Of a DNA stretch of 64,000 nucleotides, positions 44,503 through 63,033 are shown one piece after another. Both the position numbers and the translations under genes were made by a program. Where the stretch lies: IMG/VR virus record IMGVR_UViG_3300037067_009128, positions 53,326 through 117,325 of that record, one strand, 5' to 3'. The notes beneath the pieces are model-generated. The model was not told the origin of the DNA and made no database searches. It saw only the letters and a list, made by a program, of their open reading frames with translations. This DNA is from a virus. Taxonomy: Duplodnaviria; Caudoviricetes. How positions within the stretch are numbered: position 1 is the first letter of the stretch; each line of letters opens with the position of its first letter.

Positions 44503-46017
44503 ATGGGATTAAGAGATAATCGTATAAAACCAATGGGAAACAGTCAATTTTATGACTTGAATACAGACCCTAATGATGTATTATTTAATGAAGCAAGTAA
44601 ATGGGTTGAAGACTTTCAAAGTAATAATAACAAAGCTCAATTCCCTTGGAACTCTCAAATTGCAGAAGAATTCAGAACTGTACCTATACAAACATTAATA
44701 AAAGATCCATACTTTTTAGGCTTTGAAGATAATGTATATGATGGAGTGTTGAATGATATTGTGGATTTGTTTGAAGCTAAAAAAGTACATCCAATACATC
44801 TTGCTATATTTCTAGAAGGGATAGGAGCAGGGAAGACGGTTAAGGCGAGCATTCTGATGTGGATGATCTGGTATTATCTATCAATGGACCCCGATCCTCA
44901 AAGTGTCCACACTCTTGCACCAAGATCAGTCATTGCTTTATTAATGATGAGCCGGTCAGAATTACAGGCTAAGAGGATTACATTCGGAGAAGTATGGAAT
45001 CGATTCCAATCACCTTTCAATAAAGATTATTTCCCTCCAGCTGAGAGATTCAATAGAGAAATTAGAATTGAAGTCAATAATACTTGCGTTTATGCAGGTA
45101 CTAGTTCTGCCCTTTCAAGTTTGGGATACAACTTGTTTGGAGGAGTGATAGACGAAGCTTGTTTAATAAAATCAACTCTACAAAGGGTAAAATTTGAAAA
45201 TCAAATTGATTTAAGTAATATAAATTTGCACCAAAAAAATTTACATAGTGGTGCTATTGTAAGTTCATATAATATAACAAATAAAAAAGTTGAAAACCAA
45301 TTCTCAAAAGGTATATCTTCTATAGGTTTTAGAGAGATATACGAGGTAGAACTGGAAGATGGAACTATTCTAGGTCTTACTGGTAATCAAAAAGTCTTAA
45401 TTAAAACTTCTGATGGAAAAGAGGTTTATAAAAGAGTTGACCAGTTGACTGGAAATGAAGATTTAAGAGAAATGAAAATAAAATCAATTCGTAAAAAAGA
45501 AGTTTTAGAACCTGTTTATGATGTTGTTAACGTTAAAAACAATAAAAACTTTTTAGTAAAAACTGATTCTGGAAAATATATAGTTTTACACAATTCATTT
45601 CTTGAATCAACTGAAGAATCTAAAAAATCTGAAGATAAGTACGATGCATGTGAAGAAATATACCATGCAATCTTTAATAGGATGATTTCTAGGTTCTTAA
45701 AGAAAGGAAGAATCCCAGGGTTACTTTGTATGGTCACATCTCCTAATTTCCCTGATGATTTTGTACATAAAAAGATAGATGAAGCTAAGGCAAAAGGAGT
45801 CGATTCTGGAATTTTTTACAGGATTAGGTCTACATGGGATGCAAAAGGGGAAAGATATTATCCTGTAAAAGATGCATTTTATATCAATACTGATGATTCA
45901 GAGATTATAAATGATGATAATTTAACACAACTTTTAAATGCAATTCCTAAAAAAATGTATCCATTAGATTACGATATGGAATTATTAACTAAACTTGCAA
46001 AATATTTTATAAAATGA
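44503..46017 (+). CDS. Terminase large subunit, N-terminal ATPase part, with intein
   Basis: Walker A GIGAGKT, Walker B GGVIDEA|S, motif III VTSP. Confidence 0.88.
   Translation: MGLRDNRIKPMGNSQFYDLNTDPNDVLFNEASKWVEDFQSNNNKAQFPWNSQIAEEFRTVPIQTLIKDPYFLGFEDNVYDGVLNDIVDLFEAKKVHPIHLAIFLEGIGAGKTVKASILMWMIWYYLSMDPDPQSVHTLAPRSVIALLMMSRSELQAKRITFGEVWNRFQSPFNKDYFPPAERFNREIRIEVNNTCVYAGTSSALSSLGYNLFGGVIDEACLIKSTLQRVKFENQIDLSNINLHQKNLHSGAIVSSYNITNKKVENQFSKGISSIGFREIYEVELEDGTILGLTGNQKVLIKTSDGKEVYKRVDQLTGNEDLREMKIKSIRKKEVLEPVYDVVNVKNNKNFLVKTDSGKYIVLHNSFLESTEESKKSEDKYDACEEIYHAIFNRMISRFLKKGRIPGLLCMVTSPNFPDDFVHKKIDEAKAKGVDSGIFYRIRSTWDAKGERYYPVKDAFYINTDDSEIINDDNLTQLLNAIPKKMYPLDYDMELLTKLAKYFIK
45160..45594 (+). 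mobile_element. Mini-intein (145 aa) just after the TerL Walker B
   Basis: Starts CLIKS; block F VYDV; ends VLHN with Ser+1; block B reads TGNQ instead of TxxH. Confidence 0.88.
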
Positions 46018-46025
46018 GGTAAACC

Positions 46026-46532
46026 ATGAATCCTAATATTTATTATCATGTGATAGATGTAGAAACGACTACTTTTGATCCTATAAAAGGTGATATATGT
46101 GAATTAGCAGTATTAAGTTGTAGAGGAAGAGAAGTATATAACATATTTCACAAGTATTATTCTGTTGATTACATGAATATTGATGCTCAAAATACACATA
46201 AACTTTCAATTGATATGCTTTCAAATTGGCCTAAATTCAATTCTGAATGTAATATTAAAGAGTTGAATAATATTTTTAGTGTTGGAAGAAGTATCTGGGG
46301 ACATAATCTTCCATTTGATATAAGGTTTTTAACTAAATATGGAGTTTGTATTAATAATCTTTACCAAAAAGATACACTTAAAATGTTAAAAGGTGAAGGA
46401 CTTAAACTTGAAAATAATAAATTAACAACTTGGTTAAATCATTATGGTATTGAGATAAGTAATCATAGTGCTTTGGGTGATGCATTTGGTACATTTCAAT
46501 TGATTACTTTAAAAGGTTGGCAATTATTATGA
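46026..46532 (+). CDS. DEDDh 3'-5' exonuclease (DnaQ-like)
   Basis: IDVETT, GHNLPFDIRFL, DTL, HSALGDA. Confidence 0.9.
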   Translation: MNPNIYYHVIDVETTTFDPIKGDICELAVLSCRGREVYNIFHKYYSVDYMNIDAQNTHKLSIDMLSNWPKFNSECNIKELNNIFSVGRSIWGHNLPFDIRFLTKYGVCINNLYQKDTLKMLKGEGLKLENNKLTTWLNHYGIEISNHSALGDAFGTFQLITLKGWQLL

Positions 46533-46708
46533 TTTTTGGTGAAGTCATGTTATGTGATTTTCCCAATTGTAAATATAAAACTGATAATAAAAATAATAAA
46601 GAATGGGTAATATTTGGAAAATACACATATTGTAAGTTACATAAACACTGGGGAAGTAACAAGGTTAAAATAAAAAGAAATTTATATGATAATAAGAGCA
46701 CCAAATGA
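46517..46708 (+). CDS. Small putative Zn-finger protein
   Basis: CDFPNC...YCKLH. Confidence 0.5.
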   Translation: MAIIMIFGEVMLCDFPNCKYKTDNKNNKEWVIFGKYTYCKLHKHWGSNKVKIKRNLYDNKSTK

Positions 46709-47693
46709 TCCTATATTAAAGTCTTCTGCAGAAGGAGATCCTGAGAGATTTATTAGAGATATAGCATGTATTCCTAGAACAGGATTAAAAGCATTTATAA
46801 GAAGACCTAAAAAGATGTATAATTGTGTAAAGGATTACCCGAATCCTTTTAATCCTGAAACTTATAAATTCATTGAAGGGTATAAATGTAAAGACAATCT
46901 CAGAAGGTATCTACATATAGATCTTGCTAAAAATAGAGATGCTATCGGTATTGCTATGGCACATGTACCTAATTTTATAGATAGGGAAGTAATAGAAGAG
47001 AATAGTAAAAGAAAGATAAAAGTTAAAGCTCCAATAGTAAGATTGGATTTTTGGGGTAGAATTACTGTTAGTTCTAAAGAAGAATATGTACTTGGAGATA
47101 TACGTGAAATAGTTTATGACCTTTCAAGAATGGGATTTTATATAGGGTTAATCACTTTAGATAGATTTCAATCATTAGATTCTATTCAAATTTTAAAAAG
47201 TTATGGGTATATTGCTGCTAATATGTCAATAGATAAAACAGCATATTACATAAGACTTTCTGATGTTGGAGAATCAAATAAAGACGGTTATAATAGAGTG
47301 TCTACTAATGGTTGTCATAATTATGCTGTTACTACATTAAAAGAATTAGCATATGATGATAGACTTGAAGCTCCTAATAGTTCAAGATGGTATAAAGAAG
47401 ATTTCTTTGTTCAAGAGTGTATAAGATCTCAAGAAGGAAAAAAAGGTAAAGTAGATCATTTACCTAATTATCATAATGATGTTATGCAAGCTGCTGCTGG
47501 TTGCATAACGAATGCAGTTTCAAATGAAATATTTATAATGAATAATGAATCTGAGAAAGATTTAGAGAAAATGAAAGATGAATATTATAGTCAAATTAAA
47601 AGTTTAGATAATAATTTAATAAAACAAGAAAGTTATCTTGATTACAATACTGATGATCCAAGAGATATCGGTACTGAGAGGTACCAACTTTAA
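46686..47693 (+). CDS. Terminase large subunit, C-terminal RNase-H-fold nuclease part
   Basis: DPERFIRD, HIDLAKNRDAIGIAMAH, ITLDRFQS, KVDHLPNYHNDVMQAAAG; directly upstream of portal. Confidence 0.85.
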   Translation: MIIRAPNDPILKSSAEGDPERFIRDIACIPRTGLKAFIRRPKKMYNCVKDYPNPFNPETYKFIEGYKCKDNLRRYLHIDLAKNRDAIGIAMAHVPNFIDREVIEENSKRKIKVKAPIVRLDFWGRITVSSKEEYVLGDIREIVYDLSRMGFYIGLITLDRFQSLDSIQILKSYGYIAANMSIDKTAYYIRLSDVGESNKDGYNRVSTNGCHNYAVTTLKELAYDDRLEAPNSSRWYKEDFFVQECIRSQEGKKGKVDHLPNYHNDVMQAAAGCITNAVSNEIFIMNNESEKDLEKMKDEYYSQIKSLDNNLIKQESYLDYNTDDPRDIGTERYQL

Positions 47694-47710
47694 TCTATTA
47701 TAACATAACA

Positions 47711-49441
47711 ATGAGTAATAAAATGAGAAAAAAACCATCAAATCCTAGAATTAAATCCACACCAACAGTTGATATAGATTCTGATTTAAAAGCTGGGTAT
47801 AAATCTGAAGAAGATCTTCAAAGAATTATAGGGAAAGCTATTGATTTACACAAACATTATCATCAAGATGATTTGTATAATCAAGTTGCTCCTGTTGATA
47901 AAGTAAGTATCTTTAATTCAGAATTTACTAAAAAGAAGATAAAAAATGAAGATGTTAAAGATATTATATCTTCTGCATTTAATTATTTTCCTGATTGTGA
48001 AATTACTCAAGAAGAATTATTTTTATTACAAAATGCAATAAGAACTAAATATAGAGATGATAATCTTTGTCAAGGAGTTGTAGATTCTTTTGTTGATTAT
48101 GTTATTGGAAGTGGAGTTACGGTTAATTCTCCAGTAAAAGAGGTTAATGATGTTTTATGTGATTTCAGAAATATGAATAAAATGGCATTAAGAGAAAGGA
48201 ATATAACGAAAGACATATTTCTTGATGGAGAATATTTTTGTTTGATTTACACAGATAAGTCTGGGAATTGTTTTTTAAGGAAAGCAGCACCTTCTATGAT
48301 AACTTCTATAGAAACATCAAGAAGAGATATAGAAGCTGTTTTATCATTTAAAAAAGATGCTGTTGAGTATGATAGTGAAGGAAATCCTTCTGGAGTCCCT
48401 TTCACTCAATATATAAAGAATATTGATTATGATAAACTTATAAAAATGACTGATTTAGGATACATTCCAAGTGTATATTCAAGTAAATTAGAAAAAAATG
48501 TTGTTTGTAAATTCTTCAAGTTATCTGAAGAAGGTGTATTACGAGGAAGACCTCCTTTGAGGAATTTCCCAAAATATGCTAAACTTTATGAAAATTTTAT
48601 TATGGATAGAATGGTTTTGAATCATGAAAGATCTAAAGTTGTGTGGATAAAGAAACTTAAAGGGAGAACTTCAGAAGAGACATCATCAACTGCTCCTAGA
48701 GGTGGTATGATGTTGGTTGAAAGAGATGGGATTGAATATAGAATTGAATCTTCAAAATTAGATTCTGCAGAAGCAAAAGAAGATGCACTACATATACTTT
48801 ATTACTTAGGTTCTGGCATAAGATACCCTTTACATATCTTAAATCAACGTACATCTGAAGAAGTTTATGCCTCGATTCGTAAAAGTGATACTCCTTTCAG
48901 TACAATGATAACTGGTTACCAATGGTATGAAGCATTAGAATTTCAAGAAATATATAAATATACTATAGAGCAAAAAGTTAAAGCAAAGAAATTAAAGAAA
49001 CAGTATACATATCCAGCATATTCTGAAGAAAGTGTTATGTTTGCATTACTTAAAGTGACTGAATTAATTGAAGATGATGTTAACAGACCTACAGAAGAAA
49101 TATTAAATGTAGTTGATGGGATTTTAAAATCTGATGGATTAAAGGATATAACTAAAAATACTCTTGAAATACCTATTTCTCAAGATTTTCCTCAAATTAT
49201 TTGGCAAGACCCAAAAGAGATGGCAGAAGTATTGAAGATCCATAAAGAAATAGGTATTGCTTCTATACCATCACTTGCTGCTAAAGCGGGATATAATTGG
49301 GAAAGAGAATTCTCTAAAATCATTATAACTCAAAAACAGTTATTAAAAAATAACATTATTCCTGATCCTAATCCACCTAAAGAAACTGGAACAGAAAAAC
49401 CTAATGGAAACAAAACAAGTAAACCTGTTAATAAGAAGTAA
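47711..49441 (+). CDS. Portal protein
   Basis: Size and position after TerL; DYVIGSG, FLDGEYF and RGRPPL motifs. Confidence 0.8.
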   Translation: MSNKMRKKPSNPRIKSTPTVDIDSDLKAGYKSEEDLQRIIGKAIDLHKHYHQDDLYNQVAPVDKVSIFNSEFTKKKIKNEDVKDIISSAFNYFPDCEITQEELFLLQNAIRTKYRDDNLCQGVVDSFVDYVIGSGVTVNSPVKEVNDVLCDFRNMNKMALRERNITKDIFLDGEYFCLIYTDKSGNCFLRKAAPSMITSIETSRRDIEAVLSFKKDAVEYDSEGNPSGVPFTQYIKNIDYDKLIKMTDLGYIPSVYSSKLEKNVVCKFFKLSEEGVLRGRPPLRNFPKYAKLYENFIMDRMVLNHERSKVVWIKKLKGRTSEETSSTAPRGGMMLVERDGIEYRIESSKLDSAEAKEDALHILYYLGSGIRYPLHILNQRTSEEVYASIRKSDTPFSTMITGYQWYEALEFQEIYKYTIEQKVKAKKLKKQYTYPAYSEESVMFALLKVTELIEDDVNRPTEEILNVVDGILKSDGLKDITKNTLEIPISQDFPQIIWQDPKEMAEVLKIHKEIGIASIPSLAAKAGYNWEREFSKIIITQKQLLKNNIIPDPNPPKETGTEKPNGNKTSKPVNKK

Positions 49442-49533
49442 TGAAGAATTTGATTTGGAAATACCTTCTGAGCTTCAAGAATATAATTTATATATAAATA
49501 CTGTAAGTAATAAGGATGTTGAGGTAAAAAAAG

Positions 49534-49899
49534 ATGGAAATTTTAGAAATACCGATTATGACCATAACCCCTATAGTTAATGGGAGTAAAAAAGAATTAA
49601 AGTTTACATGTTATCAATCAATAGAATCTGGGTCTTTATTTACAGGTTTAAGTACTTCTAGTATAGAAGTAGTACTTAAAAGAAGTATACAGTCAAGTAC
49701 AGTTTTAACCAAGAAGACAGCAAATCTAATAGGTGGTGCTGATACTCAAGTTAAAGTTAATAACGATTCTAATTTTTCTATTTTTTTATTAGACACAGAT
49801 ACTGAAGGTTTAACTAATTATACATATATTTTTATTATAAAGATAACTCTTACAGATCAGAGTATTTATAAAATGTATGTAAATGTCCCAATCATATAA
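49534..49899 (+). CDS. BppU-N-like Ig-fold virion protein
   Basis: Beta-rich; FSIFLLDTDTEGL..YTYIF pattern. Confidence 0.5.
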   Translation: MEILEIPIMTITPIVNGSKKELKFTCYQSIESGSLFTGLSTSSIEVVLKRSIQSSTVLTKKTANLIGGADTQVKVNNDSNFSIFLLDTDTEGLTNYTYIFIIKITLTDQSIYKMYVNVPII

Positions 49900-50041
49900 G
49901 GATTAAATCCATGGCTTGTAAAATTGGTAAGAAAACTAAAAAGATGAATGTTACTAAAAAACATATGACGAATTCTTCAAGGACATCTCAATTTCCAACA
50001 ATTAATAGAACTAGAACTTTGATTTTAAAAAAGAAATCAAA

Positions 50042-50323: not shown

Positions 50324-50324
50324 T

Positions 50325-50597
50325 ATGTCTCAATATATAAATTTAACATATAAAGAAAAAAAGTTAATTCGTAAAGAATTACTTGATAAATTAGATGAAG
50401 CGTTTATTATTAATGATAATGCACAGAAAGGGATTCCTATTCATAAAGTTTTATTTTTTATACTTGATAAGTTTAATACAGGTGGGTATCATGGGAATAT
50501 TGATTTTAGAATAATGGGTAATCAAATTCATGATCCTAAAGAACAAGAAGTAACACATAAACTTGATACTATATATAATTATGATGAAGAAGTATGA
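50325..50597 (+). CDS. Hypothetical protein
   Basis: ORF in late operon. Confidence 0.6.
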   Translation: MSQYINLTYKEKKLIRKELLDKLDEAFIINDNAQKGIPIHKVLFFILDKFNTGGYHGNIDFRIMGNQIHDPKEQEVTHKLDTIYNYDEEV

Positions 50598-51181
50598 CTA
50601 AAGTAACTAAACCTTTAAATGAGTTAGATGCTATAAGGTATGCAGACCTTCTTGAGCACACTAACAATAAATCAATTCATAAATTTGATGAGACTGAATT
50701 AATTCTGGATTATATTCCGAGCGTAATGGATATTAAAGCTTATATCTTTAATGAGTATGTTACAGGAGATGCTCTTACTATTCAAGTACCTAAAGACCAA
50801 TTATTATTAAGATTTACAAATATGTTTAATTATGGAAATACATCACTAATCTGTTCTGATGGAATTACAAGAACAGTTTTGAATAATGTATTTAAAAATA
50901 TTAAAAAGTATTTAGTTTTTATATGTATCTTAAATCAAGGTCAAACAACTTCTCAATATAGTTATCCTACATTAGATGATAATAAAGGTACTTGGGGATT
51001 ATTTCAATCAATCGATGATTTAAACATACAAAATTCTGATAAACTTTGGTATGATGTTTTATTAACAGGATTACCTTCAGGTAAAATATGTTTTTGGATG
51101 GGAGTTTCTACTCAATATAATACATCAGAATTGTTAAAGAATATTAAAATAATAAATCCAGGAATGAGGTTTATTGAATGA
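50594..51181 (+). CDS. Hypothetical virion protein
   Basis: ORF in late operon; ATGA overlaps. Confidence 0.6.
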   Translation: MTKVTKPLNELDAIRYADLLEHTNNKSIHKFDETELILDYIPSVMDIKAYIFNEYVTGDALTIQVPKDQLLLRFTNMFNYGNTSLICSDGITRTVLNNVFKNIKKYLVFICILNQGQTTSQYSYPTLDDNKGTWGLFQSIDDLNIQNSDKLWYDVLLTGLPSGKICFWMGVSTQYNTSELLKNIKIINPGMRFIE

Positions 51182-51507
51182 ATGGGTTTATAGGAACATT
51201 TGAAATATTTGGTCCAAGTTCTAAATCTATAAATAGAAACGAATTTACAGATATAGATTTAATTACGGGTAATAGTAGTTTTAAACCTAATGATGTTTAT
51301 GGTATACAAGGTAATGGTATACAAGTTAGAATATTATCAAATGGTAGAGCATTACTTTGTGTTGATGATATTGTTGTAAGAAAAAGATTTTCTGCTAGTG
51401 CTCAAGTTTTTCAACAAGTAAGAGCACTTAATGGTAGGATATTTATAACAGATTGCGGTTCAGCAATCTCTCAAGGATATAAAAAAGAAAAACCAGAGGA
51501 AGTATAA
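51178..51507 (+). CDS. Tail/host-specificity protein N-terminal fragment
   Basis: G...L.VDDIVVRK...QVRALNG motif, recalled from FCB-phage tail proteins. Confidence 0.5.
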   Translation: MNGFIGTFEIFGPSSKSINRNEFTDIDLITGNSSFKPNDVYGIQGNGIQVRILSNGRALLCVDDIVVRKRFSASAQVFQQVRALNGRIFITDCGSAISQGYKKEKPEEV

Positions 51508-51926
51508 TGATTTTAGTACCTAATGTTGCTTTATTAAAAATATTAGAATTAATTTTTAAAGACACATCTCCTGTAAATCAAACTTTAAGATTATTTACTA
51601 ATGATTTAACGCCTGATGAAGACACAGTCTTAACAGATTTTATTGAAATGTCTGGGTTAAGTTATGCTGTTATTACATTAACAAGATCAGAATGGACAGC
51701 TGCTTTATCTGGAGGAGTTCCTACTATTGAGAATTTAGAGAAAACATTTACTTTTACACAAGGTACTCCAGCTACTATTTATGGATACTATGTTACATTT
51801 AATGATGGAAGTGATCGTTTATTGTATTGCGAAAGATTTGATGGGCCTAGTACTGTTGGAGCTACAGGAGATGACACAATAAAGATAGTCCCTAAAGTTA
51901 CACAAAAAACAGAGATTTTAGTATGA
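51507..51926 (+). CDS. Small virion structural protein (fibre-associated)
   Basis: LRLFTNDLTP...F.E..G..YA...TIYGYYV...LLYCERF. Confidence 0.65.
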   Translation: MILVPNVALLKILELIFKDTSPVNQTLRLFTNDLTPDEDTVLTDFIEMSGLSYAVITLTRSEWTAALSGGVPTIENLEKTFTFTQGTPATIYGYYVTFNDGSDRLLYCERFDGPSTVGATGDDTIKIVPKVTQKTEILV

Positions 51927-54900
51927 ATTATGATTTTACACCTGTTGGAGGTGTTGTTGTTGGAAGTTCTGCTTCTAAGAGTATTACCAAAAAAGTAATA
52001 GGTTCTGGAGGATTAATATCTGGTGGATCAGGTGTTGTTGGTGATTATATTTATAGATTTTTCTTTGCTCATGGTGGTCCAGGATTTAAAGTAAATGACT
52101 TGATTCATACTAGTAGAATAGACTATACAGGAAGTGGTACTCCAGTTACATTATTTGAAATCTATGGTAAAGTTACTTCAATTGATGCTGAAGGTCAAGC
52201 TTTAATAGGTATATTAAACTGGACTTCAACTATTGGGGATTATCTTGAACAGTATGGTGATTATTTAGAATGGGTAAGATTTGGTAACACTTCTGATTCT
52301 TCTAGAGCTAATCTTATAGAAATCAATTCATCCATCGGTTCTAATACTCCTTATATAAGTATTAAACAGAATATTACAAGTATTAGTGCATTAACAAATC
52401 CAGAAAATTTATTAGTTTTATTAGGAAGAACTAAAAATTATGTTGATAATCATTTTGGTACAATTCCTGATGATGGGATATTAGTAAAGAATGGTTATTT
52501 TAGAGGTTGTGTTAAAGTAGGATCAGTACAAGATACTACTGACTCTAGTGGTAATAACTGGTCAATTTCTGGAACGGGAGCTTATCTTGACAAGTATGGT
52601 AACTTTAGAGTTGGAAATGATAATGCCTATATTCGTTATAAAAAAGAAGATAGTTCATTTAAAATTAAAGCTGCAGATTTTATATTAGAGACATCACATT
52701 TAAAAATAAATTCTGTTACAGAAACTATTTTAATAGGAAGTGCATCTGCTTTTGATACTGGAGTTGGTATTTTTATCGGGAATGATTCAGGGTATAAAAT
52801 CAGAATGGGTGATCCTACAGCACAAAGATTTCAATATGATGGCACAGATATTATAATTTTTGATAAAGATGATGAAGAAGTATTCAATTCAACATCTTTG
52901 GGTGCAAATATGAGTGGCTGGAAACTTACTTCAACTGAATTTTATAAAGAATATATACATATCAATTCATCTGGTTATATTCAAAGTAAAAACCCTGTTA
53001 CACCTTTTTATGAGTATTGGAAATTAGATAATGATGGTTTAAAAATCAATATATCTGGTAATAATAGGATGATTCTTGGAAAAGCTGGGGCTTTATTTGG
53101 GATTTATATTGATTCATATAATTATTGGTATGATGATTTTGCATTTAGGATAGGGGGAGCAACTACTAATTACCTATTATTTTCTTTTGGTGGAAGCCTT
53201 ACTATAAATTCTGATACATTTAAACTTACTGCAGGAACAGATCTTGTTATTGATTCTACTGCAAAATTAATAACTTTAGCAAACAGTGCAATGAAATTTG
53301 GATATGGAGTAGGGGGTACAGGTTTACATGGTGTATATGTTGATGCAAATAATTATTGGTATTCTGATGGTACATTTAAAGTTTATACAGATGCAGATAA
53401 TTATATAAGTAAAGCTGCTACAGGAGTTGTTATAAAATCTACTTCTTTTTTATTAAAAGCAGGTAATTTAGTTTTTAATTCAACTGGGAGTATAAAATCA
53501 TATGATACTAATTATTCATACTGGGAATTAAAAGCCGATGGTTCTGGGTTTTTAGCATTAAATAATATCCATTGGGATACTTCAGGTAATTTGAGTATAA
53601 CGGGTTCAATATCAGCTTCAAGTTTTAATATTGATGAGAATAATTATTGGCATTCAGATGGTACATTTAAAATATACACTGATGCAGATAATTATATTTC
53701 AAAATCGACTAGTCTTGTTATTAAATCAACATCATTTTTATTAAAAGGTGGTAATTTAGTTTTTAATTCTACAGGAAGCATAAAATCATCATATGAAACT
53801 ACAGTTTATTGGGAATTAAAAGCTGATGGGTCTGGATTATTGGCATCAAATAATATTCACTGGGATTCTGCTGGGGCTTTGTCAGTTACAGGTACTATTA
53901 CAGGGTCTAGTTTTCAGATTGATGTTAATAATTATTGGAACTCAGATGGAACATTTAAAATTTATCATGATGCAGATAACTATATTTCAAAAGGAACTAG
54001 TTTTGTAATTAAAGCAACATCATTTTTATTATCTGCTGGTAACATTTCAATAAATTCAACAGGAAGCATTAAATCATCTGCTGGAGCTACTACTTATTGG
54101 GATTTGAAGGCAGATGGATCAGGTGATCTTGCTTTAGGTAAAATATCATGGACATCAGCTGGAGTATTATCAATTACTGCTTCTTTAAGTGCTTCATCTT
54201 TTTCAATCGATGCAAATAATTATTGGAATTCAGATGGGACTTTTCAGATTTATATCGATGATAATAATAGGCTTTCTAAAGGAACTTCAAGTTTTGTATT
54301 AAGATCTGAGAGTTTTATTCTTAAAGCAGGAAATTTGTTGTTAACTTCTGTTGGTAATATCAAATCATATTCTGGAACTACAGTTTATTGGGATTTAAAA
54401 GCAGATGGGTCTGGATTATTGGCAAGTGGGAATATTGCATGGACATCGGCAGGAGCTATAACTTTAGGAGGAACTATTACCTGGAATAGTAAACCGTCTT
54501 ACACTGCAAGTGAGGTGGGAGCTAGACCTTATGATTGGGTTCCTACAAAAAGTGATTTAGGGACTTGGACAACCTATATAGATGCTAATGGAATCTACAC
54601 AGGGACTTTAACAGCTAATCAAATAAATGTTTCAGGTATTAGTGCTTCTAATATAACAACAGGAACTTTATCTGCTGACAGAATAGCTTCTGGATCAATT
54701 ACATCTACTAAATTAAGTGTTTCTACACTTTCTGCAATTAGTGCAAATTTAGGTACAGTCACTGCAGGAAGTATTTCAGGTGTTACAATTACTTCAAGTA
54801 CTTTTGCAACAAATCCTGATGGTTATACAAGAACAAAACTTACATCAGGGACTGCTGGAATTACTTTTTATAATTTATATATTGATTGGGAATTATCAAG

Positions 54901-55699
54901 TTCAATTAGTACAGATATTAGTTCTCCAAATCGTTTAATTATGAGTTTTAGTGGTTCAGATTATTATAATTTTAGTGGACCAGTAACAGCTACATCATTT
55001 ACTGGAATACAAGTATCAGATTTACCATCACATAATCATGATACTTTATATTCAGCTATAGGACATGACCACAGTGGAGTTTACTCAGCTGTGGGACATG
55101 ACCACAGTGGAGTTTACTCAGCTGTGGGACATACTCATTCTTATGTACCTACAGGTAGTTGGACTAATGGTAATATTATTGTAGGGGCAAGTTATGGAGC
55201 AGGATTAGGAGATAGTGGTTATACACCATCATCATTTGCCACAGCTGGTCATGATCATTCAGGGGTATACTCTCCTGCAGGACATGACCACAGTGGAGTT
55301 TACTCAGCTGTAGGTCATGATCATAATAGTTCATATGTTGCAATTAATACAGCTATAACAGGAGCTACTAAATGTAAAATAACATATGATACTAAAGGTT
55401 TAGTAACATCAGGGGCAGATTTAGCCGCATCTGATTTACCTACTGGAATTGATGCTGCTAAAATAAGTTCTGGGAATGTTAGTAATACAGAATTTGATTA
55501 TTTAAATGGTGTTACATCTGCAATACAAACTCAATTAGGGGGGAAATTATCACTTACAGGTAATGGTTTAAGTAACGGAATTTTAGTAACTTCATATGGG
55601 TCAATTGGGATTATTGCTGGTTGGGCTGGAACGTTTACTGACGGAGATAGTAATGTTTACACAGTAACAGATGGAGTTATAACAGGTAAAAATTTATAA
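51923..55699 (+). CDS. Long tail fibre / receptor-binding protein
   Basis: G/S/T-rich; 96-97 aa repeats; LSAISANLG-type fibre repeats; HxH repeats. Confidence 0.8.
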   Translation: MNYDFTPVGGVVVGSSASKSITKKVIGSGGLISGGSGVVGDYIYRFFFAHGGPGFKVNDLIHTSRIDYTGSGTPVTLFEIYGKVTSIDAEGQALIGILNWTSTIGDYLEQYGDYLEWVRFGNTSDSSRANLIEINSSIGSNTPYISIKQNITSISALTNPENLLVLLGRTKNYVDNHFGTIPDDGILVKNGYFRGCVKVGSVQDTTDSSGNNWSISGTGAYLDKYGNFRVGNDNAYIRYKKEDSSFKIKAADFILETSHLKINSVTETILIGSASAFDTGVGIFIGNDSGYKIRMGDPTAQRFQYDGTDIIIFDKDDEEVFNSTSLGANMSGWKLTSTEFYKEYIHINSSGYIQSKNPVTPFYEYWKLDNDGLKINISGNNRMILGKAGALFGIYIDSYNYWYDDFAFRIGGATTNYLLFSFGGSLTINSDTFKLTAGTDLVIDSTAKLITLANSAMKFGYGVGGTGLHGVYVDANNYWYSDGTFKVYTDADNYISKAATGVVIKSTSFLLKAGNLVFNSTGSIKSYDTNYSYWELKADGSGFLALNNIHWDTSGNLSITGSISASSFNIDENNYWHSDGTFKIYTDADNYISKSTSLVIKSTSFLLKGGNLVFNSTGSIKSSYETTVYWELKADGSGLLASNNIHWDSAGALSVTGTITGSSFQIDVNNYWNSDGTFKIYHDADNYISKGTSFVIKATSFLLSAGNISINSTGSIKSSAGATTYWDLKADGSGDLALGKISWTSAGVLSITASLSASSFSIDANNYWNSDGTFQIYIDDNNRLSKGTSSFVLRSESFILKAGNLLLTSVGNIKSYSGTTVYWDLKADGSGLLASGNIAWTSAGAITLGGTITWNSKPSYTASEVGARPYDWVPTKSDLGTWTTYIDANGIYTGTLTANQINVSGISASNITTGTLSADRIASGSITSTKLSVSTLSAISANLGTVTAGSISGVTITSSTFATNPDGYTRTKLTSGTAGITFYNLYIDWELSSSISTDISSPNRLIMSFSGSDYYNFSGPVTATSFTGIQVSDLPSHNHDTLYSAIGHDHSGVYSAVGHDHSGVYSAVGHTHSYVPTGSWTNGNIIVGASYGAGLGDSGYTPSSFATAGHDHSGVYSPAGHDHSGVYSAVGHDHNSSYVAINTAITGATKCKITYDTKGLVTSGADLAASDLPTGIDAAKISSGNVSNTEFDYLNGVTSAIQTQLGGKLSLTGNGLSNGILVTSYGSIGIIAGWAGTFTDGDSNVYTVTDGVITGKNL
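53342..54480 (+). repeat. Four ~288-bp intragenic repeats in the fibre gene
   Basis: GATxxxAATAATTATTGG (DxNNYW) at 53342, 53633, 53921, 54209. Confidence 0.9.
55031..55324 (+). repeat. 33-bp coding repeats (GHDHSGVYSAV)
   Basis: GGACATGACCACAGTGGAGTTTACTCAGCTGT at 55061, 55094, 55280. Confidence 0.92.
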
Positions 55700-55735
55700 T
55701 TAAAAGTTAAAAAACTTAAAAAGGAGAAAATACAA

Positions 55736-56137
55736 ATGATTAATTTAACCAACAAACAATTATTAGATTCAATTCAAGGATTACAAGCTTTAACTAATTT
55801 GATAGATGAATGCCAAATAGGATATAAAGTTGCAAGAAAGTGTCTTGATATTGTTAATGCTGTCAATAAAGAAATTGATGAGCATTTTAATAAACATGCA
55901 AATGAGTTAACTCTGAAACATTTTGAAAAAGTTGAAGATAAAACTCAACAATCAGGATTTAAGTTTAATCCTAAACAAGAAAATAGTGAAGAAGAATATC
56001 AAAAAGAAATGAAAGATTTATTAGAAAAACAAATTGAATTGGTTAATGTATTTAAATTTACAGAAAATGAATTACAAGATGTTAAACTAAAAGCAACTGC
56101 AGTTATAGTTTTAGAACCTTTTACAATAAGAAAATAA
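55736..56137 (+). CDS. Helical protein after the fibre gene (DUF1617-like, possible assembly chaperone)
   Basis: Position and helical pattern; AAGGAG RBS. Confidence 0.5.
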   Translation: MINLTNKQLLDSIQGLQALTNLIDECQIGYKVARKCLDIVNAVNKEIDEHFNKHANELTLKHFEKVEDKTQQSGFKFNPKQENSEEEYQKEMKDLLEKQIELVNVFKFTENELQDVKLKATAVIVLEPFTIRK

Positions 56138-56138
56138 A

Positions 56139-57935
56139 ATGGGTGATTTTAATATAGGTTTAAACCAAAGTTTTGAGAAATCTTTTTCTCCAAAAAAGTT
56201 AAATAGTTTAAAACTTTGGTTACGTTCAAGTTCTGATATCACATTAGGTGATGTTAATAATCAGTACAAACTTGAAACATCGGGAAATCTAACAAGAGAA
56301 AATTCTAGTAAACTTCAGATTAATTCTAAAAATTTCAGTATTCACATACAAATCAAATGTGATTTTTTACCTGAAAGTATAATAAATCTTGTTTATCGTG
56401 ATACTCAAATATTCTTTAGATTGAATTTAAGTGGGTTAATTGAATGTGAATTAGTAGATTCTGATCTTAAGACAAGAAATAATATTTCTCTTACTAATAT
56501 ATGTGATGGTAATTATCATGATGTTGTTTTAATTGTTAATTATGAATCTGGAAATTATTTGTATATTGATAATGAACTTGAGTCTTCAGATACCATTAGG
56601 TTCACAGGTGATATCATCAACACAAATCTAATCAATATTGGCAATACTACTGAAACATCAAAATTATTTTATATTAAATTTGTAAGAATTTTTAATAAAG
56701 TTTTATCTTTATTTGAGATTTCAAATTTAAATACACAAGAGTCAATACCTGCAGAATATCAGTGGTCTGATAACGAATCATTAATCAGTAATCCTAGTTT
56801 TGAGAATTGGGATTCAATGAATGAAGTAACATTAGATGGTGTAGATCAACATATGTATAGAAATGCACCTACAAATTTAATTCCCATTGAAAGTAGTAAT
56901 TTTGACACTGATGGGATTGATTATTGGTCTACAAATAATCTTACTAAAACATATGACTCTGTTAACAAATGGATGGTATTACAAGTAAGTAAAGTTTCTA
57001 ATATACAAAATCTTTATAAAGACATTTCTGATAAAGTAAATAATAAAAAGTATAGAATTAGTTTCAAAGCTAAAACATTAGACATAGAATTAACTGATTC
57101 TGTTTTTAAAGTATCTGATTCTTCTATAATTAAGAATCCTAATTTGAATTTTTATTTTCAAGAATATATATTTGAGGGTATCTCATTAAACTCTTTGACT
57201 TCAATAAGTCTTGATGGTGGAAATAAACCTTTAAATTCAAGATTCATATTAGATGACATTGTTGTTATTGAAGATTGGGAGTTGGATTTTAATAGTCAAG
57301 AATTAGGACAGAATTACAATTTTAATAATATAGATGAACCAATTGAAGTACAATTCACTGGAACTCAATATATTGAAAAGACATTACCCAATCCAAATTT
57401 ATTTACTAATGGTAATTTTGAATCAGGAGTTAATACTGATAACATTTTGTCAACTTTTGGTATAACAACTTCTTATGATGATACTGATTCAGGAAAAACA
57501 GGAAGTTATTGTTTTAAAGGTGTAACAGTTTTATCAGAATGTGGGATTTATAAATTAAATCTATTACAAGTTGAGAAAAAATATAAATGTTCATTAAGAT
57601 ATAAATCCACATCTGATTTAATAATTTACTCTGAATTACCAGGTAGAATATTAAAACAAGAACTTATTATACTTAAACATTGTGATGATTGGAATTATAT
57701 TGAGTTTGAATTTCAAGCTGAGTATAATAGATTTGGTATATATAGTATTTTATCAGGAACATTTTATATTGATAGCTTATATTTAGGATTAAATCATTGT
57801 TTAGATATGAACGATTCTAATATTTTAAATTTTAGTAAAGATAATAACTTTGAAATCTCAGAAGTAAATGTTCTTGGGTATGATGAGAATACAATATTTT
57901 CTTTTGGTGGAGTTAATTTAGTATGGAGAGATTAA
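56139..57935 (+). CDS. LamG/ConA-like and CBM-like virion protein (opening halves of nested domains)
   Basis: LKLWL, VRIFNKVLS, NPSFE, LDGVDQ, NLFTNGNFESG, FYID. Confidence 0.7.
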   Translation: MGDFNIGLNQSFEKSFSPKKLNSLKLWLRSSSDITLGDVNNQYKLETSGNLTRENSSKLQINSKNFSIHIQIKCDFLPESIINLVYRDTQIFFRLNLSGLIECELVDSDLKTRNNISLTNICDGNYHDVVLIVNYESGNYLYIDNELESSDTIRFTGDIINTNLINIGNTTETSKLFYIKFVRIFNKVLSLFEISNLNTQESIPAEYQWSDNESLISNPSFENWDSMNEVTLDGVDQHMYRNAPTNLIPIESSNFDTDGIDYWSTNNLTKTYDSVNKWMVLQVSKVSNIQNLYKDISDKVNNKKYRISFKAKTLDIELTDSVFKVSDSSIIKNPNLNFYFQEYIFEGISLNSLTSISLDGGNKPLNSRFILDDIVVIEDWELDFNSQELGQNYNFNNIDEPIEVQFTGTQYIEKTLPNPNLFTNGNFESGVNTDNILSTFGITTSYDDTDSGKTGSYCFKGVTVLSECGIYKLNLLQVEKKYKCSLRYKSTSDLIIYSELPGRILKQELIILKHCDDWNYIEFEFQAEYNRFGIYSILSGTFYIDSLYLGLNHCLDMNDSNILNFSKDNNFEISEVNVLGYDENTIFSFGGVNLVWRD

Positions 57936-57936
57936 T

Positions 57937-58245
57937 ATGATAAAAGAATTTTCTGATTTAACTTCTGGAGTTCCAGTATTAACAGATGAATTATTAATTA
58001 GTAGGAATAATATTCCTTACAGAATTGTTATAGGTAGTACAAGTTTAACTCTTTTTTCAGTATTAGATTGTGAAGTTAATGATATGTTTGTTGTAGAAGA
58101 AGTTTTAGGTATTAAACATTGTGTAAATAAATCACAGTCTCAAATAAAAACTCTTTTAGGTATTACCACATTGGAAGGCAATTATGCTTTATCTATAAGC
58201 GGTCAATACGGATTTTATAATATTTTTAATCCTTTATCTTTATAA
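57937..58245 (+). CDS. Hypothetical virion protein
   Basis: KEFSDLT...TDELLI fibre-like N-terminus. Confidence 0.55.
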   Translation: MIKEFSDLTSGVPVLTDELLISRNNIPYRIVIGSTSLTLFSVLDCEVNDMFVVEEVLGIKHCVNKSQSQIKTLLGITTLEGNYALSISGQYGFYNIFNPLSL

Positions 58246-58256
58246 GGAAATTAACT

Positions 58257-59069
58257 ATGAAAAAAATAATTTTAATAAAATCAGACGGTAATGTAGGTGG
58301 ATATGATACAATTCAGGCTGCAATTGATGCGGGTGCAAGCGGTGATTGTGTGATTTTATACCCCGGTACTTATAACGAAAATTTAACTATTAATAAAAAT
58401 TTAACTTTGGAGAGTATCGGTGATGTAACAATAGCTGGTGATAGTACTAGTGGAACTATTGCTATTGCTGCAAATACGACTGTTTCAATTAAAGGTTTTC
58501 CAACTATTACAAATAGCAATGGAGTAGATAAAAGGATTGTTTGTGCAGACGCTACTGCAATTATTAATGATTTTTACTGGGAATTCTCTGGGAGAATTCA
58601 GCAGTTACCACCAGCAACTACAACTTCAGGCTCTTTAGCTGCAGGTAAAGTTTATTTCATAACCACATTTAATGCAGGTGATGATTTCAGTAATGTTGCC
58701 AGCGTAATAAGTGGGACAATAAATACAACTGGATGCTTTTTTAAGGCTACTGGCACAACACCAACTAATTGGAGTAATGGCTCCACATTAGATTATAGTG
58801 GTGCACCTTATATCTTGGCTTTATTTAAGAATACTACCGGACAAGATTTTGGAATAAATTGGAGTTATAGCAGTACAGGTAGTGTAACTTGGAGTGGGAT
58901 ACTTAGTCCGATAAAAACACTTATTTCTATTACAAGTCAGGGTGCAAGGCAGGTTACTTATAGTATTTCAACTAATACTATTGGAATAACTTGTTATAAT
59001 ATCACAGCAGACCCACCTGCCTTAGTTAATGGTACAGCTTTTATGCTTAATATAAGAATGTTTCCATGA
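58257..59069 (+). CDS. Virion protein with pectin-lyase-like N-terminal cap
   Basis: YDTIQAAIDAGASGDCVILYPGTYNENLTINKNLTL. Confidence 0.7.
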   Translation: MKKIILIKSDGNVGGYDTIQAAIDAGASGDCVILYPGTYNENLTINKNLTLESIGDVTIAGDSTSGTIAIAANTTVSIKGFPTITNSNGVDKRIVCADATAIINDFYWEFSGRIQQLPPATTTSGSLAAGKVYFITTFNAGDDFSNVASVISGTINTTGCFFKATGTTPTNWSNGSTLDYSGAPYILALFKNTTGQDFGINWSYSSTGSVTWSGILSPIKTLISITSQGARQVTYSISTNTIGITCYNITADPPALVNGTAFMLNIRMFP

Positions 59070-62000
59070 TTACTAAAATTTCCATAGGCGGTGGCAATTT
59101 ATCCCATGACACTAATGTGACAAATGCTTTTATAGCAGGTTACGAAAGTAATGGTGCAAGTTGGACGGGTGAAATAATTCAGCTTGGCGAAGGTGATTTT
59201 AATTCACAGATATTAACTGCATTAAATAATGGAAGTGATATTTATATCCGTTCAACAACAGGCTTAACCGCTTATATAGCAAGTGCTCTTGCTAACTACC
59301 CAAACATTCTATGTTTTGTACCGGCAGGTGCAAACAGCCCAGGAGAAATTTTTGAAAGTAATGGCGGAATAAATCTTCCTTGCATAGTTGTTACAGGTGC
59401 TGGGGATATTGCAAATGAAACTGGTGATGATATAGAATTCTTTAGTCAAGATCCTATTACTATTGAACCAGATTATTCTTCATACAGCAACGGTTATATT
59501 GCTGGACAGATTGCTTATATAATAAATACTCTTAATTGCTCAAGTTGGGAAGCCCGTTATAGGGCTCATGTTACAGGTTCAAAAAATGGTGTATGGCATG
59601 AAACAGATGGGTTTGGTTTAATAAATGTTCCGGCTGCTCTTGCATTCACAGGAACGATTCCAGATGATCCTTATATTAATCATATATTGGAAATAGGAGA
59701 TATTTCTTTTTCTTTAGAAGATCTAGAATTAACAATTGTTTGTGATGTGGTAGAAAATGCAGAAAATTATATTATAGAACAATTAATTGATGGTGTTTGG
59801 ACAGTTGTAACTAATCAAGTAACAGTTGAATATGGAAATGTTTATAGATTTAGATATAAAGCTAATATGACAAATGGTTATGAGGTATTAGAAGAGACTG
59901 GATATAGTGAAACATTTTTATTTAATGTTCCAGTTTTACCTACAATTATTAATCAATCTAATAATATAAATTGGATTGGTTATAATTCACATAGTTGTGA
60001 TATTTCATATAATGATTATAAAAGTGGAACTTCTTGTTTAGAAATACAATCAACAAGAGAAGGTGATGAGTATGATGATTATTGCTTTTTAAGTAATAGT
60101 TATTTTAGAAGTTTAATTCGAAATAAACAATACCTAATAAATTTCTGGGCAAGAACGGGATTATCAGATACTTCAATTACAGTAAAGATAGGAAATAAAT
60201 CAAAAACATTTAACACAGTTTCTCACACTGTTGAGGTATTTACAGAATGTAATTTTTATTTTACAGTTGACATTACAGAACTTAATCAAGGAATCAAACT
60301 TTACTTAAATCAATCTGATACTGTTTATATTGATGATTTTACTATTTCTGAAGCTCATGACTTTAGTATGGGTATTTGGGTAAAAAATGGTCTTATTCAA
60401 ACTACTGATAAAATAATTCAATTAAGTAATGGAAGTAGTTCAATAAGTTTTAAATACGAAATAGGAACTTCTTGTGTTATAGCTTCAATAAATGATGAAG
60501 AAATAAGATATGAAGATGAATCTATAATTGACGATACTTGGAAATTATTAAGTATTACTGGTGATAGAGACGGAAGTTTAAAGTTTTATATAAATCAGAG
60601 TTTAATAGGTACATCTGTTATTTCTTCAAATGTGGGATTATTAAAAGATTTTGAAAGTTTATCAAGTTCTGAAGGTCTCATACACTCAATAAGTGATTTA
60701 CAGATTGTTAGAGATCATATTTGGGATTTAAATGGGATAAAAGATATTTATAATAACGGATTTAAACATAAATATAATACAGGTGAAGTAGTATTATGGA
60801 ATGATTTTAAAGAGGAAAATCAAAGAGGTAAAGATCTTTCATTATTAAAAAATAACATTACTTTATATAATACTCCTATTTACACGTCTATATTAAAAAA
60901 TAATATTATTAATAATTGGAAAAAAATTACAAATGGTTTAAGTAATATTATTTATGATGAATCAGAAGAGACTATTAAATTTGAAATAGATTCTACACCA
61001 AACAGAGTTTATATTAAACAAGAAATATTACTTGTTAAAGATAAAAAATATACTTTTGAAATCTGGACTAAAGGAAGTAATTCTTCTACAGGTTATATAA
61101 TTAACATAATTAATCCAAATGGTTTAAGTTTAAAATCTGATTTAACATTTGGGGTTTTGGATAATATAACAGTAATTCCTGGAACAACTTATAGTAAAAA
61201 AGCTATAACATTTATTGCAGATTCTGATGGGCTATTTACTATTGAAATTAGTAATAATACTGTAAATAGTGCTTCTTCATCTTTATGGTTTAGTAATTTT
61301 AGTTTTACAGAAGGGTATGATTCTACTATAAATATATGGGTTAAGAATAATTCTGATTTAGAAAGTAATTTATTGAATTATGGAGGAAATAATCAATTAT
61401 CTATAAAAAAGAATACTAATAATAAATTTTGTATATCAAATTCAGGAGTAGGAGATTATAGACTCACAGATTCTGTTTTAACAGAAGATGAATATTATTT
61501 ATTAAGTGTAATTTTAATAGGAGGAGCAAAATTCCCTAAAGATATTCAACTTTATTTAAATGGTGAATTAAATCAAGGAACATTTACTCAAGATTTAGGT
61601 AATTATATTGCTTTAGGTAATCCTACAAAATTATGTATAGCTTCTAATAATGGAACTTCTAATTTCTTTCAAGGTAGTATAGGCGAAATAGAAATATTAA
61701 AAGGTGTAAATTTAACTGACACACAAATTAAAGAATTATATAATTCAAGAAAAGATTTTAATAACACAAATCAAGTGTTACATATTAAACCTGATGTTAA
61801 TGGAGAAGATTTATCAGATAAAGAAAATGATGTTACTATTGTAAACTCTCCAACATTCTCAACAATTGATTTGAAGATAGAAGATTGGAATCATTTTTAT
61901 AATGGTAATTCAAAAATAGATAAAAATACTGATAATGCAAGAAGTACAACTTGTGTTAATTTTAAATTAGACTCAAATAATTCTGAAGTAAAAGTATCTC

Positions 62001-62974
62001 AAAGTTTTAATTTACAATCATCAAAGAATTATGCATTAGAAGTTTGGGCTAAAGCAGATGATGTACTTTCAAGTTATCACATTAATATAAAAGATTTTAA
62101 TGGTTTGGTCTTAACTGAAGATAATACTTGGATTGAAGAAGAATCAATTATTGTAGTTCCTGGAACTTCATATTCAAGGAAGTTTATCCAATTTCAAGTA
62201 CCTATTTCTGGGGTATATACAATAGAATTAAAAAGTATCGGAGTTGCAAGTTCTAATCTATACTTTGATGATCTTAGTCTTTATTTTGAAGGATGTCTTG
62301 TTGAATTACTTCAATCAAATATTACAGGAAGTAAATGGGTAGATTCATCTTCAAATCAATTGGATTTTACAAACAACTCAATTTTAGATTTAATCTCTAT
62401 TAATATAGATACATTAAATGATTTAAGTATTAATTCTAATAATATGAGTCAAGACACCAAAGATAATCAACCTATTCTTATTGAAGGTGATAAATATAAT
62501 ATCATTAGATTTGATGGAGTAGATGATGTTTTAATATCAAACATTTCTGATCTTACAGATTTTTCAATTTTTATCTTATTCAAAATTAGAACTTCACCCA
62601 CAGTTAAATCTATTATATTTGGGAACACACTGGACAATCTTTGGATTAATAATTCTTTACAACTAGGAGTTTATTGTAGTAATTTTAATAATACAATAAA
62701 TCTGCAATTAACTCAAGACACATTAGAGATATTAGGTTTAGTTTATGATTCAACAAATAATCAATTAGAAATATATCAAAAAGAAAATAAAATTAATACC
62801 ATCTCAGGAATTATTAATGGTAATAATCTTTTAAGTTGTCTTGGTGGGTTATCAAATGGAACTTCTTGTACAAGTTTAGATTTAGTTGAAATCATTTGCA
62901 CTTCTGATAAAATGAATGATATCCAAATGCAAGCTCTAGTCAATTCTTTAAAAGAACAATACTTCAATGATTAG
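59066..62974 (+). CDS. Large virion protein: subtilase-like N-terminus, then closing halves of CBM/LamG domains
   Basis: HDTNV, PAGAN, SSYSNGYIAG, GFGLIN; VYIDD, GSIGEIEI, LYFDD, FDGVDD. Confidence 0.7.
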   Translation: MITKISIGGGNLSHDTNVTNAFIAGYESNGASWTGEIIQLGEGDFNSQILTALNNGSDIYIRSTTGLTAYIASALANYPNILCFVPAGANSPGEIFESNGGINLPCIVVTGAGDIANETGDDIEFFSQDPITIEPDYSSYSNGYIAGQIAYIINTLNCSSWEARYRAHVTGSKNGVWHETDGFGLINVPAALAFTGTIPDDPYINHILEIGDISFSLEDLELTIVCDVVENAENYIIEQLIDGVWTVVTNQVTVEYGNVYRFRYKANMTNGYEVLEETGYSETFLFNVPVLPTIINQSNNINWIGYNSHSCDISYNDYKSGTSCLEIQSTREGDEYDDYCFLSNSYFRSLIRNKQYLINFWARTGLSDTSITVKIGNKSKTFNTVSHTVEVFTECNFYFTVDITELNQGIKLYLNQSDTVYIDDFTISEAHDFSMGIWVKNGLIQTTDKIIQLSNGSSSISFKYEIGTSCVIASINDEEIRYEDESIIDDTWKLLSITGDRDGSLKFYINQSLIGTSVISSNVGLLKDFESLSSSEGLIHSISDLQIVRDHIWDLNGIKDIYNNGFKHKYNTGEVVLWNDFKEENQRGKDLSLLKNNITLYNTPIYTSILKNNIINNWKKITNGLSNIIYDESEETIKFEIDSTPNRVYIKQEILLVKDKKYTFEIWTKGSNSSTGYIINIINPNGLSLKSDLTFGVLDNITVIPGTTYSKKAITFIADSDGLFTIEISNNTVNSASSSLWFSNFSFTEGYDSTINIWVKNNSDLESNLLNYGGNNQLSIKKNTNNKFCISNSGVGDYRLTDSVLTEDEYYLLSVILIGGAKFPKDIQLYLNGELNQGTFTQDLGNYIALGNPTKLCIASNNGTSNFFQGSIGEIEILKGVNLTDTQIKELYNSRKDFNNTNQVLHIKPDVNGEDLSDKENDVTIVNSPTFSTIDLKIEDWNHFYNGNSKIDKNTDNARSTTCVNFKLDSNNSEVKVSQSFNLQSSKNYALEVWAKADDVLSSYHINIKDFNGLVLTEDNTWIEEESIIVVPGTSYSRKFIQFQVPISGVYTIELKSIGVASSNLYFDDLSLYFEGCLVELLQSNITGSKWVDSSSNQLDFTNNSILDLISINIDTLNDLSINSNNMSQDTKDNQPILIEGDKYNIIRFDGVDDVLISNISDLTDFSIFILFKIRTSPTVKSIIFGNTLDNLWINNSLQLGVYCSNFNNTINLQLTQDTLEILGLVYDSTNNQLEIYQKENKINTISGIINGNNLLSCLGGLSNGTSCTSLDLVEIICTSDKMNDIQMQALVNSLKEQYFND

Positions 62975-63033
62975 GTCATTCTGATTTTTATGATCATCAA
63001 TATATTTAACTATTAACATTTAACTATTAAATC

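Follow-up and report, generated by a model that had tools for sequence, protein, structure and literature searches.

The large terminases (TerL) described so far as single chains, whether of the T4 gp17 type or of the family of Vibrio phage vB_VhaS-a and Gordonia phage proteins, carry on one polypeptide the Walker A, Walker B and motif III sequences of a packaging ATPase and the acidic residues of an RNase H-fold nuclease, and their gene adjoins that of the portal protein. Here we describe a TerL that shares all of these features but is encoded by two genes with intact genes between them, and so differs in being a predicted two-chain enzyme. It lies in IMG/VR virus record IMGVR_UViG_3300037067_009128 (Caudoviricetes), of which positions 53,326 to 117,325 were analysed. 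This stretch of 64,000 nucleotides, referred to below as the window, corresponds to the final 64 kb of one contig of 117,325 bp (G+C about 25%). Window coordinates are used throughout; L and G numbers denote related loci and genomes, and P numbers denote protein cluster representatives. Among the cultured phages in our collection, none has a TerL that is more than about 33% identical to either half.

Two kinds of published system resemble this arrangement. In Aeromonas phage Aeh1, nrdA is split by mobE, which encodes a free-standing homing endonuclease (Friedrich et al., 2007, PMC1851037, as cited in PMC5418858). The likeness lies in an essential phage enzyme whose coding sequence is divided over two genes, each translated on its own and parted by an intact gene, and in a presumed non-covalent assembly. 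The differences are that the gap gene here encodes a DEDDh exonuclease, with no HNH, GIY-YIG or LAGLIDADG domain detected, and that the split is kept across a large clade rather than being sporadic, while the gap content changes. A search for a homing endonuclease in the TerL gap with Pfam and PHROGs showed only an RNase_T/DNA polymerase exonuclease for 46026–46532, and nothing for the small open reading frame (ORF) beside it. The second parallel is provided by fractured genes that combine split inteins with a free-standing endonuclease, one locus of which is a gp17-like terminase (Dassa et al., 2009, PMC2677866). There too a phage terminase gene is in two pieces with a gene between them, and distant members of the TerL family start with pieces of 35 amino acids that resemble the C-part of a split intein. 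In the locus described here, by contrast, no N-intein ends the upstream half, no C-intein starts the downstream half, and the break is at a domain linker and not inside the ATPase domain. Neither parallel fits as a family: the gene in the gap cannot be recognised as that of a homing endonuclease, and the break lacks split-intein ends. A literature search for a described two-gene terminase found none, only the papers on genes in pieces and on fractured genes. Separately, the terminase inteins of actinobacteriophages and other phages have been surveyed (bioRxiv 10.1101/2025.01.02.630785).

Two genes for one large terminase

A preliminary description of the window had claimed that one ancestral gene was split by an inserted cassette at three places in the late region, namely in TerL, in a pair of tail protein genes starting at 51178 and 51923, and in a pair of LamG/CBM genes starting at 56139 and 59066. 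All the ORF coordinates that it named were confirmed (Table 1); the pattern itself held for TerL only, and for the other two pairs no contiguous homologues were found. The reading that we favour, with a probability of roughly three in four, is that TerL is the one truly split gene and gives a two-chain enzyme, that its ATPase half carries an intein, and that the two fibre pairs are ordinary neighbours.

The upstream gene encodes the packaging ATPase (TerL-N), which is predicted to be 359 amino acids long once the intein is spliced out, and the downstream gene encodes the nuclease (TerL-C). In the one-chain TerL of Vibrio phage vB_VhaS-a (670 residues), residues 88–337 match TerL-N, in two pieces, and residues 393–653 match TerL-C, whose fold is assigned by this alignment. 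The halves match consecutive parts of one-chain TerLs, and the earlier proposal that TerL is cut in two with intact genes between is borne out. Catalytic motifs are retained in both halves; within TerL-C, 20 stand-alone homologues all share residues D79, D159 and D265. The two domains do not lie on one polypeptide, in that TerL-N ends with a stop at 46017, two ORFs follow, and TerL-C begins with a new methionine at 46686. This ATPase/nuclease pair is the only TerL of the genome, in a contig that closes on itself with an overlap of about 127 bp between its ends (window 63874–64000 against L025:1–140). The first 11 bases of the contig (TCTTCCGATCT) resemble a sequencing-adapter remnant.

The sequencing run that best matches the contig, and that it may come from, is a groundwater metagenome, and pieces identical to the contig are also present in an independent landfill metagenome. 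The landfill contigs cross both junctions of the TerL insert with zero differences, so that the split layout is not an assembly error; the junctions of the intein lie outside their coverage. No excision joints across the insert were found in either metagenome.

The insert occupies 46018–46685 (668 bp) and consists of the exonuclease gene and the Cys/His-rich ORF of 59 amino acids, which has no Pfam match. Uninterrupted alleles of TerL had been called for as a means of mapping the breakpoint, and fused metagenomic relatives such as P0009 (676 amino acids) provide them: they map onto both halves, and in P0009 only about 16 residues are unaccounted for at the break. From about residue 5 onward, TerL-C matches the extein or linker sequence of fused TerLs. 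An origin of the break by junction duplication, in which the tail of TerL-N would resemble the head of TerL-C, was rejected by hhalign (probability 0.04). A PDB profile search with the nuclease half matched no solved structure.

Rejoining of the halves after transcription or translation, whether by an unrecognised intron, by translational bypass or by protein trans-splicing, could be suspected because TerL-C lacks a clear ribosome-binding site and because inteins are common in the TerL family, some members of which start with the 35-residue pieces mentioned above. These members, however, break within the ATPase domain and not at the site between TerL-N and TerL-C. At the latter there are no split-intein ends: the tail of TerL-N consists of about 30 residues that vary in length and carry no HINT motifs, while TerL-C has a conserved methionine start, and its first residues match the extein sequence of fused TerLs. 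The gap holds at least two conserved intact ORFs and measures 0.5–2.6 kb among relatives. Between 40000 and 64000 no Rfam family was found at E ≤ 1 except for a chance snoRNA match, although divergent introns can escape Rfam. We consider rejoining to be very improbable, and the splicing or rearrangement process that had been suggested earlier finds no support in an Rfam intron, in split-intein ends or in excision joints. The earlier statement that flanking repeats, intron cores and recombinase are absent holds within the region; the insert is flanked by nothing beyond short direct repeats that resemble chance matches. No terminator was found on the + strand between 43000 and 50000.

Since the halves are separate genes in this uncultured phage and in many of its uncultured relatives, we infer that the two chains must cooperate, given the catalytic residues in both, the conserved methionine, the lack of intein motifs in the tail of TerL-N and the multiple intact genes in the gap. 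TerL would be translated as an ATPase chain and a nuclease chain, with the break in a short linker between the two domains, and the chains would most likely assemble non-covalently on the portal, forming a two-subunit counterpart of the one-chain enzyme. The region between the two genes may act as a slot for unrelated genes, probably carried as cargo: here a DEDDh exonuclease and a small Cys/His protein, and in relatives a lysozyme, a radical-SAM protein, a glycosyltransferase, a sulfotransferase-like protein or only small ORFs.

Table 1. Coordinates of the features discussed, in the window.
Feature	Position	Strand	Remarks
Possible small terminase, 264 aa	43499..44293	+	Directly 5' of TerL-N; function putative, based on position
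TerL N half (TerL-N), packaging ATPase, 504 aa	44503..46017	+	Walker A GIGAGKT, Walker B VIDE, motif III TSP; predicted mini-intein inside
Predicted mini-intein, 145 aa (Cys220 to Asn364, then Ser365)	45160..45594	+	Insertion site directly follows Walker B VIDEA
DEDDh (RNase T/DnaQ-like) 3'-5' exonuclease, 168 aa	46026..46532	+	Pfam RNase_T E 1.9e-15; PHROG 192 E 3.9e-23
Cys/His-rich small ORF, 59 aa (CDFPNC ... YCKLHKH)	46529..46708	+	ATGA overlap with exonuclease stop; 23-nt overlap with TerL-C start
TerL C half (TerL-C), RNase H-fold nuclease, 335 aa	46686..47693	+	Own conserved Met start MIIRAP...DPERFIRD
Portal protein	47711..49441	+	PHROG portal families E 1.4e-5; 3' of TerL-C in every relative
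Orphan protein, 109 aa (proposed upstream half)	51178..51507	+	No family match
139-aa protein (proposed insert)	51507..51926	+	Resembles a widespread stand-alone phage protein family of ~135 aa
Fibre-like protein, 1258 aa	51923..55699	+	Gly-rich leader, conserved domain aa 44–231, 96-aa tandem repeats, GHDHSGVYS repeats
LamG and two CBM-like modules, 598 aa	56139..57935	+	Laminin_G_3 at aa 59–194, profile positions 12–150 of 151
Two intact genes, 102 aa and 270 aa	57937..59069	+	Own starts; second ends in TGA overlapping next ATG
1302-aa protein	59066..62974	+	N-terminal region of ~290 aa, then CBM-like modules alternating with stretches, two of them matching LamG

The break and its gap among relatives

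When the nuclease half was used for an exhaustive HMMER search, 1325 cluster representatives proved homologous at E ≤ 0.001. Among the best 150 of these 1325, 75 are stand-alone nuclease halves with the same start residue and 55 are fused. The stand-alone forms have a common head, M-x-I-I-x-V-P-x-E-L ... DPE-x-F-x-RD, which was seen in 20 aligned homologues. The closest relatives (49–58% identity) have both the break and the exonuclease, and fused forms appear only at about 37% identity. TerL-N is 53–59% identical to the genes of L003 and L002 and about 50% identical to those of an IMG/VR clade, while TerL-C is 58% identical to its counterpart in L002 and 49% to that in L003. The gene order in both loci is TerL-N, exonuclease, small gene, TerL-C and portal; the small gene of L002 is an ORF 52% identical to the Cys/His ORF and in the same place, and in L003 an unrelated DUF4031 gene stands there instead.

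More distant relatives keep the same layout. In the P0013 group, which comprises 17 IMG/VR contigs with TerL-N about 50% and TerL-C 36–40% identical, the gaps measure 1.0–2.6 kb and the order is TerL-N, an optional sulfotransferase-like or GT11-like gene, the exonuclease, a GH108 lysozyme, optional radical-SAM and small genes, TerL-C and portal. L024 (about 32% identical) has the same break, with two small ORFs and no exonuclease in the gap. The succession of TerL-N, gap genes, TerL-C and portal is kept in L002, L003, L004–L017, G001 and L024, and across relatives the gap measures 0.5–2.6 kb and differs in what it contains. What is conserved is therefore the break, and what varies is the set of genes inside it. 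Viral-contig scans with P0002, P0010, P0021 and P0028 gave no matches. We note that in G001 (L021/L022) the TerL-C homologue, at 5442–6385 of the reversed record, is in two ORFs of 171 and 96 amino acids, for which a frameshift or a sequencing error could be responsible, as could an additional break. Upstream of TerL-N, homologues of the gene for the possible small terminase hold the same site in L003, L004, L007–L017, L024 and G001; its product has no Pfam match.

Orthologues of the exonuclease occur in the same gap of L002, L003 and L004–L019, with the DxE, D and H-x4-D residues invariant. One alternative is that the exonuclease is no passive cargo but a working partner of a two-chain terminase, which might, for example, trim DNA ends as the genome is packaged, and that it sits between the halves for this reason. 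In its favour, it comes first among the gap genes here, in L002, in L003 and throughout the P0013 clade, it is tightly packed in the same operon, and its DEDDh residues are intact despite identities of 25–47%; against this, L024 shows that the same break occurs without it, and other gap genes (lysozyme, radical SAM, glycosyltransferase) are plainly unrelated to packaging. We know of no terminase that needs a DEDDh partner, and we regard a partnership as unlikely. Somewhat more doubtful again is the further-reaching proposal that the two-chain terminase is a distinct working design, with the exonuclease as a third partner and the gap as a slot for regulated expression instead of a site of chance cargo build-up.

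A predicted mini-intein in the ATPase half

The preliminary description had overlooked a probable mini-intein in TerL-N. It has a Cys at position 1, a terminal His363-Asn364 and Ser365 as the +1 residue, and it lies in frame in a conserved motif. All aligned relatives are without it, their sequence being continuous across VIDEA/xFLE. The intein of the fused relative P0030 is similar (BLASTP E 4e-12) and is located five residues upstream. In the PDB, the TerL-N intein is best matched by chains of the Npu DnaE intein (E 0.19), in an alignment that includes blocks B and F. In common with the surveyed terminase inteins of other phages, it appears to be a HINT-type mini-intein in a conserved motif of the TerL ATPase, with the same Cys1, terminal His-Asn and +1 Ser; it differs from them in that Gln replaces the usual His of block B, and in that its host gene is itself half a TerL. 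It is probably active, as a working motor would require its removal by protein splicing.

Other interruptions were seen in the family. An IMG/VR relative (L019:1341–3338) has a large intein with an HNH endonuclease domain in the nuclease half of TerL (Pfam Intein_splicing E 2.3e-21, HNH_3 E 5e-8). Four distant TerL relatives (P0154, P0136, P0106 and P0020) start with a piece of 35 amino acids that ends in His-Asn followed by Thr or Ser at the Walker B region; these starts resemble the downstream halves of terminases fractured by split inteins, and some may be truncated ORFs. Taken with the mini-intein, the HNH intein and the split-intein-like starts suggest that the TerL family has been interrupted in several ways. 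Outside the window, the minus strand at C1:38708–38836 gives a weak tblastn match (E 0.014) to the first 45 residues of the mini-intein, and may be a second intein, in a different gene.

The fibre gene pairs and the significance of the split

In the first of the two fibre pairs, the 109-residue protein proposed as the upstream half has no Pfam or PHROG match, no credible match in the phage database and no longer homologue; its nearest Atlas clusters are small viral proteins of 69–127 amino acids, with scores of at most 0.86, which are leads only. The 139-residue protein proposed as the insert was placed by an alignment-free look-alike search, in which 29 of its 30 nearest ESM Atlas clusters have a feature score of 0.97, and its predicted structure compares with Atlas proteins of 119–141 amino acids at template modelling (TM) scores of 0.72–0.87. 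Pfam gives it no match, and PF23140 (Gp80), found in only 15–32% of the look-alike members, is a lead only. The sole homologue of the 1258-residue protein is the distant P0005, residues 565–746 of which match its conserved domain, and the sequence of P0005 upstream of this shared domain has no similarity to the 109-residue protein. The gene for the 1258-residue protein contains tandem repeats of 288 nt (96 amino acids) at 53340–54253, in overlapping arrays of 2.2–2.6 copies, and repeats of 33 nt encoding GHDHSGVYSAV at 55052–55132.

In the second pair, the 598-residue protein is a sequence orphan in homologue searches, and the N-terminal 300 amino acids of the 1302-residue protein have no homologue in the phage database. 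The products of the two genes between them, of 102 and 270 amino acids, have no family matches. The 1302-residue protein has two Laminin_G_3 stretches, the better at residues 738–888 (profile positions 5–150 of 151). There are five CBM-like modules, each with its own opening and closing motif: two in the 598-residue protein (residues 205–382 and 408–556) and three in the 1302-residue protein, with which they align end to end. Since LamG is near-complete in each gene and the modules align over their full length, there is no domain that starts in one gene and is completed in the other. BLASTP found no significant similarity between the 598-residue and 1302-residue proteins.

All junctions in the two pairs are out-of-frame overlaps of the ATGA or TAATG kind. 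The genes starting at 51178, 51507 and 51923 are joined by ATGA or TAATG overlaps in different frames, and the TGA of the 270-residue gene overlaps the next ATG (ATGA), also out of frame. The preliminary description had held that the last inserted gene is fused in frame to the downstream half. Taken literally, this proved incorrect, as the stops of 51507–51926 and 58257–59069 overlap the next ATG in another frame. A frameshift that would fuse 58257–59069 to 59066–62974 was considered and rejected, no slippery site being seen by eye.

No contiguous or one-chain homologue was found for either pair in the phage database, in a search of 5.8 billion proteins at near and longer lengths, or in related contigs, within the limited sensitivity of these searches, and the partners within each pair have no significant similarity to each other. 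The lack of contiguous homologues had been named beforehand as the result that would speak against split genes, although absence is weak evidence. The view of the partners as halves of one gene also found no support in any longer homologue, and on their sequences 51178/51923 and 56139/59066 are not supported as split genes. They would instead be neighbours in a variable block of fibre and lectin genes, coupled by overlapping stop and start codons.

The surroundings of the pairs bear on this. In G001 and G002, the homologue of a gene for 90 amino acids (50325–50597 here) stands immediately before homologues of the scaffold, cement and capsid genes, which in this genome lie just beyond the end of the window. 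An accessory block of about 16 kb (window 50594–64000 plus L025:1–2840) is missing from both relatives. It contains fibre-like and LamG/CBM proteins, a lysozyme, small membrane proteins and a 398-residue protein with an InsA-type zinc ribbon. A different block of 8 kb lies in G001 between the portal gene and a gene for 87 amino acids (reversed record 8771–15883); its proteins have lipoprotein-like or signal-peptide-like N-termini, and we would guess that these may hint at a Bacteroidota-type host. Such turnover fits ordinary exchange of fibre and lysis genes, and not cassettes that cut genes.

The original idea was that all three pairs are single ancestral genes cut by cassettes, serving either to graft modules by complementation or as part of an unrecognised splicing or rearrangement system. 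It draws on the facts that TerL is truly split with intact genes in its gap, that intact genes do indeed lie between the members of both other pairs, and that the fibre block is variable and missing in G001 and G002. We find it hardly credible for the pairs as a group, because neither fibre pair has a contiguous homologue and their partners lack significant similarity, because domains are complete within one gene and the junctions are ordinary out-of-frame overlaps, and because there are no repeats, introns or excision joints. Of its two components, fragment complementation probably applies to TerL, as two separate genes, and not to the fibre pairs; grafting of modules onto the virion falls away, as the sole real case, TerL, is not a virion component. 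A milder version, in which the fibre pairs are real but very old splits whose one-chain alleles have not been sampled, seems improbable. Fibre genes are highly modular, and with near-orphan proteins homologue searches have little power; there is, however, no positive support for it, P0005 has unrelated sequence upstream of the shared domain, and each LamG protein has a complete set of modules.

Our preferred reading, with TerL split, an intein in its ATPase half and the fibre pairs as neighbours, has several points against it. In a quick tree of the nuclease domain, split and fused forms are intermingled; the tree requires 11 changes, at least four of them forced by well-supported branches, so that the gene may have split once, long ago, and fused again in places, or may have split repeatedly. 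A Shine-Dalgarno sequence is not evident for TerL-C, whose start overlaps the small ORF by 23 nt, and the case for separate chains is built on sequence. For the intein, the match to Pfam Intein_splicing (E 1.4e-5) scores 25.4, under the curated cut-off of 35.8, and block B reads TGNQ where TxxH is expected, with Gln replacing His. The argument over the fibre pairs draws on the absence of homologues in word-indexed searches, which is weak evidence, and AlphaFold2 models made without an alignment had a pLDDT of about 30 (598-residue protein and the first 430 amino acids of the 1302-residue protein) and were unusable.

The supposed three-fold pattern is thus without support in two of its three cases, and it is the TerL locus that carries the wider interest. 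Unless annotators know of this layout, ATPase halves that carry an intein and nuclease halves that stand alone will be overlooked or labelled as fragments. The slot between the TerL halves shows how an essential operon can gain accessory genes. Finally, models of viral DNA packaging assume that the motor includes a covalent link from the ATPase domain of TerL to its nuclease domain, and a large natural clade with two chains would be a ready-made test of whether this link is needed for translocation, for the switch to cutting and for headful sensing.

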